Virus record (IMG/VR): IMGVR_UViG_3300017765_000001
Span: 1-64,000 of that record
DNA: 64,000 nt
Reading direction: 5' to 3' (one strand)
DNA from: a virus
Position 1 is the first letter of the stretch. Each line of letters begins with the position of its first letter. Of the stretch, positions 54,001-60,000 are shown in pieces. Made by a program: the position numbers.

Positions 54001-57000
54001 CCCTGCTTGTGGATTGCTTTGTGATCTTGTTTGCTTCTACATTACCTACCCTTGCTCTCCATTCTCTGAAGATCTCTCTGTTGTAATGACTAATGATAGA
54101 TGTAATAGAAACAAGTTTATTTCCATCTGGAGTGTCATAGTATCTAACACCATCAATCATCTCCCTATCTAATTTAGGGTAATCAATCTCAATATGTTTG
54201 AACATTAGAGTCCTAATTCAAGTTTTGTTGTTATGTACTCTTTGACAAATCCACTTCTGCAGATATCTTCAGCTTGGAATTCAATGACATCAAAGGATGG
54301 CATGTTCTTCAAGATACGCATGAAATCAATGATGCCATTCTTCTCACTCATCTTAATAAGGTCAGTCTGTGTTGCATCACCACAGAACATGATCTTTGAA
54401 CCTTCACCTACTCTGGTGATGATAGAGTCCAATTCATGGAAATTCAAATTCTGAAACTCATCAACAATCAAAATTGAATTATCAAAGGTTGTACCTCTAA
54501 TATATGATGTGCTCCAGAAACTAATAGTTCCCTGTGCCTTAAGATTATTGTAAAGCATATCAAAAGATGAGTCATCAGGCATCTCAAACATATACTTTAC
54601 CATATTCTTATATGGAATTTGATAGATGTCTGATTTGTCCTCATGATCACCAGGCAGGAATCCAATCTCTCTGGTAGGCACCAAAGATCTCACAATATAG
54701 ATTTTCTCATACTGAGTGTTAACATTCAATACATCCTGAAGTGCATTATATAAGGTAATGAATGTCTTGCCTGTGCCTGCACACCCATAGGCAACCATAT
54801 TTTGGTTCTTCTTGTATGAATTAAAGAAAATCTCCTGGTTGTCAGTCAGTGGTTCAATTTTCTTGGCATAATCAAGATTAATTGGTTTCTTTCGCTTCAT
54901 TTGTCTATTACTCATTCCAAATGGGACTGGATTGGTGCTACCAATACCTGAAGACTTTCCTCTACTCTTGGGCATAAACTCTAATTAAACAGGATTAACA
55001 TTTGAACCTGGCATCTTGGATACCTTATGAAGAACATCATTCCAACCTGGATGTGACTTCTTCAGTTTATCATATGTCTCCCCTACTTCTCCCACGCCAG
55101 CACATCCAGCTGACCAATCTTTATCCCAATCAGGATTTTCATCTCTCCACTCACTATATTTAATCATAGTCATATGGAGAGTTTGTGTCTCTCCTGTCTT
55201 CATATTTTTCACTGGATATGTTGGCATATCAACCTCAATTGTATGTATATTTATTAAACCCAGTCAAGGGCACCCCCAATGATGGGAAATTGTTCAGTAA
55301 AGAGTCTCTTACACTCATTGGCAATGTCCATATGTTCTTTCTGAGTTCCATTGGCAGATCTCAGATCAATATAGTGAATCCATGAACGAACAGATCCAGT
55401 CATGTACATTCTAGTTGGAGTTGCTAATGGTAAGACCATACGAGCACACTCCTTTGCTACACCTCTTTCAAGCATCTGTTGATACAGTGCCATAGAAGAG
55501 TCAAACAGAGTCTGCATCTGGAGTTCCAGATTTTGTTTAACAAATGGGTCAAGATCATCAGTGGAATTCTGACGATTCTTAGTGTCCTGACGTCTCAATT
55601 CTGGAAGAGGAATCTTATCCATCAACAAAGATGAATCAGCATACCTTTGTGAAAATTCTTGATATGTGAAGCTCCTATGACGTAGCACTTGAGCCGCAAT
55701 TGCTCTTGATGTTTCTATCTCAAGAGTCATGTATGCCTGTTCAAAGATGCTCCAATGCTTGTGCTTGATGCAATACTTGATAAGACCCTCAAAGGAATCA
55801 TTGCCCTGGTTAGTGGGGTTACTGACCCTTGCACAGTAAGCAATGTGCTTCTCTGCATCGGGGGTGACTGATAGTAGTGTTACTTTCATTTAAAATTCTT
55901 CCTCACCTTTTTTAGTTCCTTTAGTTCCTCTTTAATTTGTTGATAAGCATCCTCTGTTTTGATTTTGTCTGCCATTTCCATGGCTGTGATTATTTCAACT
56001 CTTGTTCCAAAATGTTGTAGTGCCCTTTCAAAACAATCTAATTCTTCGTACATTTTAACCTCTATTGAAGTATGCATTGAAATATGCACTGATACCATTG
56101 GATGTTTTATTGCCTTGAGAAATCCAGGTATCAACACACTCATAAATGTCTTGAGTGCTGTAAGGTGCCTCCTCTATCCTTACACCTCCATATTTATTGA
56201 GTAGAATATTAAGGCATCCTGCCCTAAGTTTCATTCTGTCCTCTGTGTATCTCCAATCTTGGTTAGTCTGGATATCCATCATCATCATTAAAAATTTCAT
56301 CATAGTCAGAGATTGGGGCATAGTATGATGCTGGATCATCTAAGTTTTCTCTCTTGTCAAGGTATGCAGTAGTATCAGAGTAAACTTCAGACTCTAGTGC
56401 ATCTACAAGTAATTTAAGATTTCTGACAATTAGTTTGAGTTTATCCTTTTCCATAGGAGAATATTTACTTGTACTAATTATAGATAAAAAAAGAGGACCA
56501 GTCAAGGTCCTCTAAAAAACTTTCCAATCAGATATGCCATGTGATTTAAGAAAAATCCATTTAGCATATGATACACCACGATATGTCAAAAGTCTAAAAA
56601 CTTTTTCTGGATCATGGGTCTCTGGATTGTACTCTGGAAGATCATAACAAAATTTGATCTTCAGCATTTGTCATCCCTCAGATTTTTTTTAGAAGGAGTA
56701 TTTCACCATACCATAATGACATTGTCGCAAAACAAGCAAGAGTGGTGACTGCTGTGAGTTGTAGTGCTCCCATAATTACCTCATTTGGTATAGGTACGAC
56801 CACGATAGCAGAAGGTGCCATGAGGCTCCTGTCCTGCCTTACGAACTTCACACTTTACACCACGATATGCAGTGTGAGTGATTCGTGCGTCATGCAGAGC
56901 TGCTGCCTTGTTAATTTGCTTCTTAATGATTGTAAGTGTGTTCATTGATTTCTCCTGAAAGTAAGGGGTTTTTAATCCCGTTCCTTCAGTCGTTTGCGTC

Positions 57001-60000
57001 CCATCTACACTCAGAAGTATAGTCCTGAATGGTTTCAATTAATTCTAACTTCCACTCTGCTTTCAGATTCTCATGCTTTTGGATCCTAAGGACCATAGCA
57101 TCAGCATCTGAACATGTAATGGTTGATGAAAGAAAAAATTCAAACATGGGATGAACGCTCCGTTCCGCGACTTACTTGCGTCCTGAGACTGAATTTTACT
57201 TCTGACTCTTGGATGAACGATGGTCTTATTATAGACCTCATGACTTATATAGTCAAGTTTGTATGTAACTTGTGATACAATTTTACTATTTCTACAGAAT
57301 TATACCTTTGTCTCTAAAAAAGTGTAGCAAATCCTTCAAACCACCCACATGTCTTGACCCATCACTATCAATTGTAATCTGAGGATACTCTGCCTTCTCT
57401 CCAAACTCGGACTTGAATCCAATCTCTGAGAAGTCTTGGCCTACATGATAGACACTAATATCATGACCACTAAACTGGACACTTTTCAGCAGACTCTCTG
57501 CTCTCTCACACTCTTGATTGTCATTTGAGTAAATGATTGCTCTCATTAGTCTCTCTGTCTCCAATCGTCTGGTTTGTCCTGTTTAAACCAATCAAGAATT
57601 TCATCTGCCCCATCAAATCCATTCTTGTGATTAGATGGATCAGGATCTCCTAGTCCCATCTTATTCAAAAAGTCATCAGTGCTGCCCTCCTCAATTTCTG
57701 AAGTAGACTGACGTCTTGCTTTATTTAACCAATCTCTTGCAGTTGTGTGTGCCTTTGCTAATTTCTCTACCCAGATCATGTCTTCTAGGGGAACATTCTC
57801 TTTATTAGCAATGAGCCTACAAATAGACTCTAAACGAAGTCTGTATGCAGTAGAAAGCATCTTAATCTCTATGCAATTTTGCTTCTAAATCTGTTGTCCT
57901 TTGGAAATCAGCATATGCACCTTCAGATCTCTCATGAAGAATGTCCATGAGATCAGCATAAATTACATCTACCTCAACATAATCATTGAAGTATGAATCA
58001 ATTGCTTCTTTGAGATACCTTTTACGATTCCACTCAGGTGAATAAGGCTTATACATGATATGAGGAATACATGATTTAATCATATTACTATTTAACCACT
58101 TTGTCAACGTTCTATCTGACCAATTCTATGTTTTGTAGCCTCTAGTTTATTGATGATGATGTCACATCCCAATTCAGGTATTGCATTGCCACAGGTAAAA
58201 AAGTCTACAGCAGCTTCTCCTCTCTCAGGCCAGGTATGAATTGAGATATGACTTTCACTTAGAAGACCCAGAATGGTCACACCATGAGGCGAGAATGATT
58301 TAGATACTATTTCTAATAGATTAACTCTACTAGTAGAGCAAGCCTCTGTGACACACTGTCTAAGAAAATATTCATCATTTAGTAATCCAAATGGGCAACC
58401 ATACAGATTTACAAAGTAATGCTTACCCATCTACAGGATTATCCTCCAACTCTTTGATCATATTTGAAATAACCTTTTCAGATCCATCCAGAGTTTTCAG
58501 TTCAAAGAAATTAGATTTGCGATACTTATTCAGTTTCTTATATTTTTTGATGAGTTTGTCCAAATCATCTTTGGGCAAATCAAATTCAACATCAAATCCT
58601 TTTCCCATCTTACTTCTTCTTTTTCTCTTTGCTCTCAATACCCCAAAGTTTAGGATTACTTCTTCCCTCTGCTTGGTTCATGGTAACAAAATTCTTTTTG
58701 TAAGTATCATAATAGTGATCAAATATCTCACTTTGCTTACCTGCAAAAACTAAGTCATAATGAGATGCATCATCCACTCTATACTCTACAAGGAATGCAT
58801 TATTGGGTAGTGATTTATCCTGTGCATCAACAGGATCACAATCTTCTTTAATGATCTTCAACTTCTTCCTCCCCATTCAATATCAGGATATGCTTGTGAC
58901 ACAACATCCTTGGTGATTCTATACTTTGATCCTAGCACTTTATCCTTAATAAGGCAAATAATTTCTGCCTCACCAGGATGAAGTCCTTCTAGCATTTGGA
59001 TAAAGATAGACTCTCTACGGGTCTTAGAAAGTCCATCATTGCCACCTTTCACAAAGTGATAGAGATTCCTATACTCCTTCCTCAAAGAGGTATGGTCTGT
59101 CCCAATGGGTGCCTCATTCTTATTAAAGGGAACTTCCCCCTCAGGAAGCAAAGAGATCACTGTATCATCAAAGTTCCATATCAAGATTGAAACAAGAGCA
59201 TCATTTCTATGCTCCTTCAAAATCTCAATCTTCTTAGCATTAGATCGTTGCTTACTAGCAAACTCCAAAATCTCATGGATAAAAGGATTGGGGGGAAGTT
59301 TTTTAGTTACACTAAATTTCTTCTTCGTCGTCTGGGCCATTTTCAAACCTCACTGATAAAATTTCATCTGGGATAATCTGTCCATTCTCATCAAACATTT
59401 CAGGGTGGGTGGGAATGTATGTAGCTGTTCTTTGATATGCATACTCTCTAAGAAGATATCCAACTACACCTCCAACAACCAGAAACAATAATGAAATGAC
59501 TGTAGACAGTGTTAGGGTTACTGCTAACATTTTACCTCTCCCCTCTAGGACTGTGTTTTAAGACATCCAATGAGAAGTCTAGATTAATGTGAATCTCCCT
59601 TCTTAGTAAGGAGATCACCTTACCAAACCTCACTTGGAAAGTTTTTGGTCTGGGTTTCCTCCTTTTGTTTCTTAATAGTAATTCTACACCTCTGTTCATT
59701 TTGAGGGTATCATCACTTTTGACTTTATTTAGAGGACTTTCTTCTCCTCCCTGGTCTTTTGTCACTACTGTACCTCCATCCATCAAGAAGAATCCCATAT
59801 AGGTATTCTTTTATTTTTCTTGCCTGAGGTTTAGATATGAAACCATAAGCCTCTCTCAGTTGTTTGTGCTCATCATCAGCACCACCTTTGATATATTCTT
59901 CAAGTTGTAAAGTCAAATCACTCAGCTCTGCAGCAACAGAGCTTTCATTAAAGGCATCAATCTCATGCTTCTTGATTTTGTTATCTTTAAGAAAATCATA

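Follow-up and report, generated by a model that had tools for sequence, protein, structure and literature searches.

Can two aptamer cores of one riboswitch complete each other, and can a protein gene be read from inside such an RNA? Both questions are raised by a locus in IMG/VR virus record IMGVR_UViG_3300017765_000001, positions 1–64,000, a stretch of 64,000 nucleotides (nt) of T4-like cyanomyophage DNA that we refer to as the window. At 57221–56978 (-), direct reading finds two glutamine-riboswitch cores (core 1 and core 2; Table 1) upstream of a DUF4278 (IF17-like) gene. A preliminary description of this sequence had pointed to a stem in core 2, UCCCAU with AUGGGA, that encloses a whole open reading frame (ORF), and to complementary pentamers, AGUCG and CGACU, in the junctions of the two units; it proposed that the two aptamers complete each other through this pairing, and that folding and translation of the ORF exclude each other. 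On inspection the stem has 6 base pairs and encloses 140 nt (57145–57005), the A and U of the AUG of the 53-residue ORF are paired in it, the final codons UGG GAC GCA AAC GAC UGA (WDAND-stop) form the 3′ half of the aptamer, and the pentamers lie one in each junction. We estimate that two junctions of ~10 nt would share a 5-nt complement by chance in a few percent of cases. The window alone is therefore weak evidence for cross-pairing, and it is the comparative data that make the case strong.

Matches to the region were found by BLAST in 373–420 phage records, all from phages of Synechococcus or Prochlorococcus, and a pattern scan of IMG/VR added at least 120 further contigs with the element. 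Removal of duplicates left 139–140 loci, and the alignment used for most comparisons (A1) holds 137 phage and virome loci. The pattern by which most loci were collected prescribed some of core 1 and the beginning of core 2, including the CGC-AAGUAA stretch, whose invariance in A1 for this reason carries no weight. It left free P2, the 3′ half of core 2, and two segments called x1 (after AAGUA in core 1) and x2 (before GAAGGAACG in core 2). The few loci that could not be parsed were incomplete contigs or lacked a 3′ half. In core 2, the 3′ half is nearly invariant among the loci obtained from BLAST alone.

In every haplotype, x1 and x2 pair in one fixed register. The helix that they form (P3) has 8 pairs in A1, of which 90.3% are paired across loci and 6 of 8 have changed on both sides; for the P2 of core 2 the values are 7 pairs, 85.6% and 5 of 7, despite its 140-nt loop. 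Taken jointly, 87.9% of cells are paired and 11 of 15 pairs have changed on both sides. None of 500 shuffles attained the observed value on any of five measures, and sliding the 3′ partner by 1–3 columns lowered pairing from 87.9% to 29–50%. P3 comes in a short class (A-GUCG-C with AA-CGAC-U) and a long class (A-GCCGAC(U/A)-C with AA-(A/U)GCCGAC-U), and both show compensatory change, from GUCG/CGAC to GUCA/UGAC and from GCCGACU/AGCCGAC to GUUGACU/AGGCAAC. In addition, its first pair changes from A-U to G-C or G-U, and its eighth is U-A (n = 32), A-U (n = 10) or G-C (n = 1). In the P2 of core 2, CCCAUG/CAUGGG alternates with CCUAUG/CAUAGG, and the fourth pair is C-G (n = 94), U-A (n = 28) or U-G (n = 9). 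The P2 hairpins of core 1 covary among loci as well (for example, CCCUUCGGG, CACCUUCGGGUG and CAGAGGAAACUCUG). Comparison across loci shows P3 (GUCG/CGAC in the window) and both P2 stems to be base-paired and covarying, and the cross-pairing and the ORF-enclosing stem of the preliminary description are both borne out. In the long class, an octamer, AGCCGACU, is identical in both cores and nearly self-complementary (for example, at 502–526 and 687–711 of locus L020); its duplex retains C.A and A.C mismatches in ~35–42 sequences, and a few variants have U-A or A-U instead.

What is this helix? The glutamine-I riboswitch (glnA RNA motif, RF01739) was reportedly described by Ames and Breaker in 2011, and its structure is said to have been solved by Ren and colleagues in 2015. 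The glutamine-I crystal construct reads ...CGG-AAGUAA-(P3)-UGAAG-CAACG, with an E-loop made of 23-GAAGUAA-29 and 50-UGAAGC-55 (PMC5393176). The phage cores divide these parts between them. Core 1 has AAGUAA and no GAAG, x1 being followed by C-GGAACGG, and core 2 has UGAAG and no GUA, its linking strand reading CGC-AAA. Because the flanks AAGUAA and UGAAG match the glutamine-I E-loop, the AGUCG/CGACU helix is, judged by these motifs, the P3 and E-loop of a glutamine-I fold, with one strand in each core. Each core alone lacks the E-loop/P3 feature, and by the same comparison neither is a complete glutamine-I aptamer; a composite outer aptamer drawn from both has the two E-loop strands and the covarying P3. 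The claim of long-range completion holds in that a covarying helix joins the cores, but this helix corresponds to the P3 and E-loop of the glutamine-I fold and does not serve as an added kissing contact joining aptamers that are each complete.

The other parts of a glutamine aptamer are found in both cores. Two copies each of the CGUUC and GAACG strands of P1 are invariant in related loci, and a hairpin with covariation support directly follows CGUUCA in each core. In glutamine-II, the binding-site segments and the C:G linchpin lie in CGUUC, CGC and GGAACGG-G (PMC6698751). These three segments (CGUUC, CGC and GGAACGG), including those with ligand-contacting and linchpin positions, are kept in both phage cores, from which we infer that glutamine would be the ligand of both. 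In the Bellamy locus and 28 others, core 2 is compact, with a P2 hairpin of 10–26 nt and no ORF, and the core 2 of Bellamy, the best of these compact cores, reaches 34.5 bits against RF01739. Since such ORF-free forms exist, the half-sites on either side of the ORF in the window belong to a single aptamer, whose P2 loop the ORF interrupts.

The element resembles two known classes without fitting either. With glutamine-I it shares CGUUCA, the P2 hairpin, CG(G/C), AAGUAA, P3 and UGAAGGAACG, what would be a three-way junction with an E-loop, a position upstream of a DUF4278/IF17-type gene, and an anti-Shine-Dalgarno segment overlapping the 3′ strand of P1. Unlike glutamine-I, its E-loop and P3 strands come from two cores ~180 nt apart with the second core enclosed in P3, its linchpin is formed by C:G, the pair of type II, rather than by G:C, its P2 loops hold protein genes, and its scores lie below the Rfam gathering threshold. 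At that threshold Rfam reported nothing for the element in the window, and 0 of 20 related phage loci passed; core 1 scored 18 bits against RF01739, below the threshold of 35 and seen in E-value mode only, and core 2 of the window was not reported even in that mode. With glutamine-II (Downstream-peptide motif, RF01704) the element shares CGC...GGAACGG with a C19:G41-type linchpin and downstream YRG/DUF4278 peptides (PMC6698751). It differs from that class in its E-loop signature, in its scores (14 bits in the window and 27 bits in Bellamy, against a cut-off of 33), and in the second, pseudoknotted helix, as no contiguous helix encloses either GGAACGG. According to Huang et al. (2019, PMC6698751), two RNA pieces can assemble into the glutamine-II aptamer, and its crystals contained a dimer with exchanged strands.

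The element also differs from glutamine-I in being found on phage DNA. Its junction pattern had 2 matches in 401 picocyanobacterial genomes (L272 and L273), and the 3-kb stretches around them match cyanomyophage genomes over 38–73% of their length; by this resemblance the two probably represent phage contigs that were binned together with the host, or else islands of phage origin. A scan of genome contigs for GGAACGG-N(2-6)-CGTTCAYC gave, among the matches listed, chance occurrences in unrelated bacteria and none that could be used.

How are the strands of the two cores connected? On the RNA chain, AAGUAA follows CGUUC, P2 and CGC of core 1 without a break, and UGAAG passes directly into GAACGG of core 2, so that the canonical junction would consist of the first CGUUC and the last GAACG. 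This connectivity of the E-loop strands favours a nested, strand-swapped arrangement over two aptamers side by side, and we regard nesting as the probable topology. The first CGUUC would pair with the last GAACG in an outer aptamer, whose P3 would enclose an inner core. The inner core would be circularly permuted and without an E-loop, running GGAACGG(1), a loop of 3–6 nt, CGUUC(2), A, P2(2) and CGC(2), and it would use the opposite end of the same P3, the whole being a single-chain strand-swapped dimer. Among the GenBank phage loci obtained by BLAST, the 21 that have the tandem junction all show 3–4 nt between the first GGAACGG (b1) and the second CGUUC (a2), a length better suited to a hairpin loop than to an unconstrained linker between aptamers; the cores in the window are separated by 2 nt (AG). 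The same near-self-complementary octamer in both long-class cores suggests an origin by tandem duplication, and the element probably arose, as far as its present sequence tells, by tandem duplication and loop-loop pairing, followed by complementary loss of GAA in core 1 and of GUA in core 2.

Several points weigh against nesting. All four P1 strands are identical and invariant, so that P1 covariation cannot separate the nested from the tandem register, and nearest-neighbour energies of the compact Bellamy RNA are equal (-28.6 nested vs -28.2 tandem). The first CGUUC is transcribed together with the first GAACG well before the second, which favours the tandem register kinetically, and the nested one would need strand exchange. 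The linchpin G of a nested inner core would be the first base of a 3–6-nt hairpin loop and may be strained there. In addition, ~30% of loci have UAAAG rather than UGAAG, which is atypical for a textbook E-loop, and the conserved C.A and A.C mismatches of the long class are atypical for a textbook P3.

The equal energies and the order of transcription speak for two tandem aptamers side by side (a1-b1 and a2-b2), with GUCG/CGAC as a pseudoknot between them and core 1 resembling a glutamine-II pseudoknot aptamer to which core 2 donates the 3′ strand of the second helix. The linchpin polarity of CGC / GGAACGG-G is of the glutamine-II type, and the parts CGUUC, hairpin, CGC, 6 nt, helix strand, 2 nt and GAACGG follow one another much as in the glutamine-II consensus. 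Moreover, glnA RNAs, some of them tandem, were reported in 2010 from marine metagenomes, and in the alignment of Weinberg et al. the first core of such a locus figures as a motif by itself, with all that follows it as flank (PMC2864571). However, in a tandem pair the E-loop strands would bridge the linking strand of one aptamer and the P1 of its neighbour, a misfit to the glutamine-I junction as reasoned from published descriptions; the flanks AAGUAA and UGAAG are of the glutamine-I type, unlike the linking strand of glutamine-II; and the short b1-a2 linker suits a hairpin loop. We consider the tandem arrangement less likely than nesting, though more likely than the other alternatives. Comparison may also be made with the tandem glycine riboswitch and other tandem aptamers, which likewise place two aptamers for the same amino acid in one leader with contacts between them. 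Those are complete domains that dock, whereas the phage cores share one obligatory P3 and E-loop; the alignment shows this structural interdependence, and by analogy with tandem aptamers a sharper response would be expected.

What of the gene inside core 2? A long insert in the P2 of core 2 occurs in 111 loci, each of which has an open frame there, of 49–67 codons; in 105 of these 111 the frame closes at the UGA (or UAA) in the 3′ strand of the E-loop. Entropy at codon positions one, two and three is 1.38, 0.91 and 1.61, the order pos2 < pos1 < pos3, the median ratio of nonsynonymous to synonymous substitution rates (dN/dS) is 0.48, and two cysteines are invariant in the family. The protein from the window matches phrog_504 (E 1.4e-22), and its AlphaFold model is a helical hairpin (helices 12–24 and 30–43, predicted local distance difference test 82). 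A Foldseek search of the model against the PDB returned generic helical hairpins only, with no match at E <= 0.001, and a Pfam search found no family for the microprotein. In related phage records, the nested ORF and the downstream gene are hypothetical proteins, in T4-like gene clusters 430 and 660. A reading of the hydrophobic N-terminus as a lipoprotein or signal peptide was rejected by eye, as the cysteine comes after only ~11 residues, a basic n-region is lacking and the lipobox is poor. Conservation across loci and a coding pattern mark the ORF as a genuine gene. Absence of covariation and an unconserved ORF, each of which would have counted against the preliminary description, are both contradicted by the comparison.

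The possibility that the ORF goes untranslated, the insert being a folded RNA domain or what is left of a decaying gene, strikes us as improbable. Translation is predicted from sequence, dN/dS is only moderately low, long-class loci lack a GGAG ahead of the AUG, and the protein is without a fold match. Against this possibility stand a frame open in every long insert, the ordering of the entropies, two invariant cysteines together with a confident hairpin model, and products that fall in established phage families (phrog_504, 6471 and 13397).

Core 1 may carry a gene of its own. Of 139 loci, 39 have an ORF of 61–75 codons (18 in one parse) within the core 1 P2 (for example, L002, L004, L021 and L038; phrog_6471), and many of these ORFs end in IIGRK-stop, encoded by GGA CGC AAG UAA, the stop being the UAA of AAGUAA. 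The two strands of the E-loop supply stop codons for two different nested genes. Profiles of the core 1 and core 2 ORFs are homologous (hhalign 95.9%, E 6e-9), and a free-standing homologue of the microprotein occurs outside any aptamer, in L008. Among the 139 loci, 18 have no ORF, 82 have one in core 2 only, 11 in core 1 only and 28 in both, all four combinations occurring in both P3 classes, which indicates that the RNA scaffold is constant and that the genes come and go. Comparison of the loci shows each P2 loop to be a tolerated site for genes of what appears to be one microprotein family, with two cysteines and a helical hairpin. That the two aptamers are independent, the AGUCG/CGACU complement incidental, the 140-nt insert merely tolerated and the ORF functionally unlinked is very improbable: a 5-nt complement in a single sequence is weak evidence, P2 loops accept insertions, all presence/absence combinations occur on a scaffold independent of them and L008 stands free, but the covariation keeps one register through several distinct compensatory changes, neither core alone has a complete E-loop, the ORF starts in the P2 5′ strand and stops in the E-loop in 105 of 111 loci, and GGAG is found only where the ORF is present (in short-P3 loci, 82 of 83 with a nested ORF vs 0 of 11 without).

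How might such an RNA regulate? From the 3′ end of core 2, an alternative hairpin (CUGAAGGAACGGG with CCC..UUACUUUCAG) reaches into the AGGAG of the next gene (-13.5 kcal/mol, z -3.3), and its anti-Shine-Dalgarno pairing is constrained: where the G of UGAAG has changed to A, the facing base is C in 0 of 38 loci, and where G is kept, it is C in 30 of 73. By this comparison, the alternative hairpin is shown to pair the E-loop/P1 3′ strand with what would be the downstream ribosome-binding site. We think it likely that the element is the leader of a small cyanomyophage operon in which two glutamine-riboswitch cores are fused, sharing one P3 and one E-loop, with a regulatory logic attached; our confidence in the architecture is higher, and in the regulatory logic lower, than in this proposal as a whole. 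Glutamine would stabilise both cores. The outer core would then capture CUGAAGG and release the Shine-Dalgarno sequence of the IF17-like gene (ON), and the folded inner core would bury the GGAG and AUG of the nested gene (OFF). For the gifB riboswitch of Synechocystis, an ON-switch model has been put forward in which the binding of glutamine opens a duplex that would otherwise occlude the site for the ribosome (Klähn et al. 2018, PMC6212724), and the putative phage expression platform matches this model by analogy. Ribosomes on the nested gene would unfold P2, P3 and the E-loop, so that translation and sensing may exclude each other. The start codon and GGAG in paired regions, the stop codon in the E-loop and the covarying anti-Shine-Dalgarno hairpin agree with the cooperativity, exclusion and coupling first proposed, as far as sequence can speak to them.

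On the other hand, a ribosome ending at the E-loop UGA would melt the anti-Shine-Dalgarno strand, and the downstream gene might be on at low glutamine, which would blur a reciprocal logic; termination there could couple both genes or blur the switch. Our most specific proposal, which we offer as a possibility with less than even confidence, is of a domain-swapped, single-chain double riboswitch that at high glutamine would turn on an IF17-like homologue of a glutamine-synthetase inhibitor and turn off one or two aptamer-nested microprotein genes, its P2 loops being recurrent insertion sites for one family.

How much of this was known? Glutamine riboswitches are listed among the non-coding RNAs of cyanophages (PMC9964418, PMC9602691), and a census of 2017 recorded two glutamine aptamers only in cyanophage genomes and concluded that riboswitch use is rare in phages (PMC5473149). 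In the literature searched on phage glutamine riboswitches, we found no description of the split E-loop and P3, the enclosed second core or the nested genes. On sequence comparison we rate the element as a known ligand-binding core with a new architecture and a new nesting of genes, in which an essential module, the E-loop and P3, would be divided between two cores. Standard riboswitch annotation overlooks this double-core layout; with ~370–420 cyanophage records carrying the element and none of the 20 loci tested passing Rfam, the use of riboswitches by abundant ocean viruses is probably much underestimated. If our reading is true, riboswitch control would be common rather than rare in marine T4-like cyanophages, and this would be the first known riboswitch with translated genes inside its ligand-binding domain.

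Group I introns offer a parallel, as their peripheral loops host ORFs for homing endonucleases, such as I-TevI in the td intron of phage T4. In both cases a protein gene occupies a tolerated loop of a structured RNA, and its translation would compete with folding. Unlike the introns, the phage RNA would be a metabolite sensor, its cargo is a two-cysteine microprotein of ~55 residues rather than a nuclease, and its start and stop codons sit in conserved aptamer nucleotides. In a possible two-output switch, glutamine would link the nitrogen status of the host to a phage-encoded homologue of the factor that inactivates glutamine synthetase in cyanobacteria. At ~105 nt, compact natural variants such as Bellamy open the structural question to probing, calorimetry and crystallography.

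Table 1. Parts of the double glutamine-riboswitch locus in the window, in order of transcription.
Feature	Coordinates	Strand	Remarks
Core 1	57221–57160	-	AU-CGUUC-A-(UCC hairpin GGA)-CGC-AAGUAA-GUCG-C-GGAACGG
a1, first CGUUC, 5′ strand of P1	57215–57219	-	Invariant across alignment A1, in part because loci were located through a CGTTCA search
P2 hairpin of core 1 (UCC...GGA)	57181–57213	-	Extended loop of 27 nt in this phage
CGC linking strand and E-loop 5′ strand AAGUAA, core 1	57172–57180	-	Matches CGGAAGUAA of the glutamine-I crystal construct
x1, GUCG, 5′ strand of shared P3	57168–57171	-	Covaries with x2; AGUCG of the preliminary description, 57172–57168
b1, first GGAACGG, 3′ strand of P1 and linchpin G	57160–57166	-	Read from the sequence
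GGAG, Shine-Dalgarno-like	57158–57161	-	Formed by the last G pair of letters in b1 (GG) and the linker AG; nested AUG follows after 9 nt
Core 2	57157–56978	-	CGUUC-A-UCCCAUG ...140 nt... AUGGGA-CGC-AAA-CGAC-UGAAG-GAACGG
a2, second CGUUC	57153–57157	-	Read from the sequence
P2 of core 2, 5′ strand UCCCAU	57146–57151	-	Holds A and U of the nested start codon
Nested ORF, 53 residues, phrog_504	56986–57147	-	AUG at 57147–57145; ends with the UGA in the 3′ strand of the E-loop
P2 of core 2, 3′ strand AUGGGA	56999–57004	-	6 base pairs with UCCCAU
CGCAAA, linking strand of core 2	56993–56998	-	No GUA, hence no E-loop strand
x2, CGAC, 3′ strand of shared P3	56989–56992	-	CGACU of the preliminary description, 56992–56988
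E-loop 3′ strand UGAAG	56984–56988	-	Its UGA is the stop of the nested ORF
b2, second GGAACGG	56978–56984	-	Read from the sequence
Alternative hairpin (putative OFF state)	56955–56989	-	CUGAAGGAACGGG with CCC..UUACUUUCAG; extends into the ribosome-binding site
AGGAG, Shine-Dalgarno of downstream gene	56952–56956	-	Kept in related loci
DUF4278/IF17-like gene, 54 residues	56781–56945	-	Two YRG motifs; phrog_545; profile matches
Rest of small operon	56492–56773	-	31-residue peptide, second YRG peptide, terminator-like hairpin

Upstream of core 1 lies a sigma-70-type promoter, TTGACT-17-TATAAT (57256–57228, -), with 11 of 12 consensus matches, which predicts a transcript that begins close to the first nucleotides of core 1; related loci have promoter-like sequences at the corresponding position. 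A perfect NtcA-type box, GTATCACAAGTTAC (GTA-N8-TAC; 57278–57265, -), stands 8 nt upstream of the -35 hexamer as a candidate site, and the same or a similar box occurs in related loci; such boxes number 20 in the window, vs 9.9 expected by shuffling. The -10 box TATAAT sits inside an inverted repeat, GGTCTATAATAAGACC (57224–57239, -), which could be an operator covering that box or, in any transcript that enters from further upstream, an RNA hairpin. Inverted repeats at the same position in L001, L006, L009, L013 and L019 read GGTCTATAATAGACC and ATGGTATAATTACCAT.

The genes around the element lie on the minus strand. The product of the gene that directly follows it matches phrog_545 (E 4e-29), and DUF4278 (PF14105) with 15.8 bits (E 0.018) against a cut-off of 25.3, its repeated YRG motif being visible. 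At other loci, all nine downstream proteins tested match DUF4278 (18–26.8 bits, E 7e-6 to 3.5e-3, one above the cut-off), and by these profile matches the downstream gene is DUF4278/IF17-like throughout. It is followed by a 31-residue hydrophobic peptide (56678–56773, -) and a second YRG peptide (56512–56667, -; phrog_6192, with a weak DUF4278 match), both probably on the same transcript as the IF17-like gene. A terminator-like hairpin (56492–56513, -) closes the small operon, and a second promoter, TTGACT-17-TATAAT, with hexamers identical to those of the riboswitch promoter, overlaps it (56477–56513, -). Elsewhere the window encodes thyX and speD, and its sole Rfam matches above threshold are a PhotoRC-II RNA (63841–63937, -; 78 bits) and a tRNA gene with a long variable arm (30964–31047, -; 54.7 bits).

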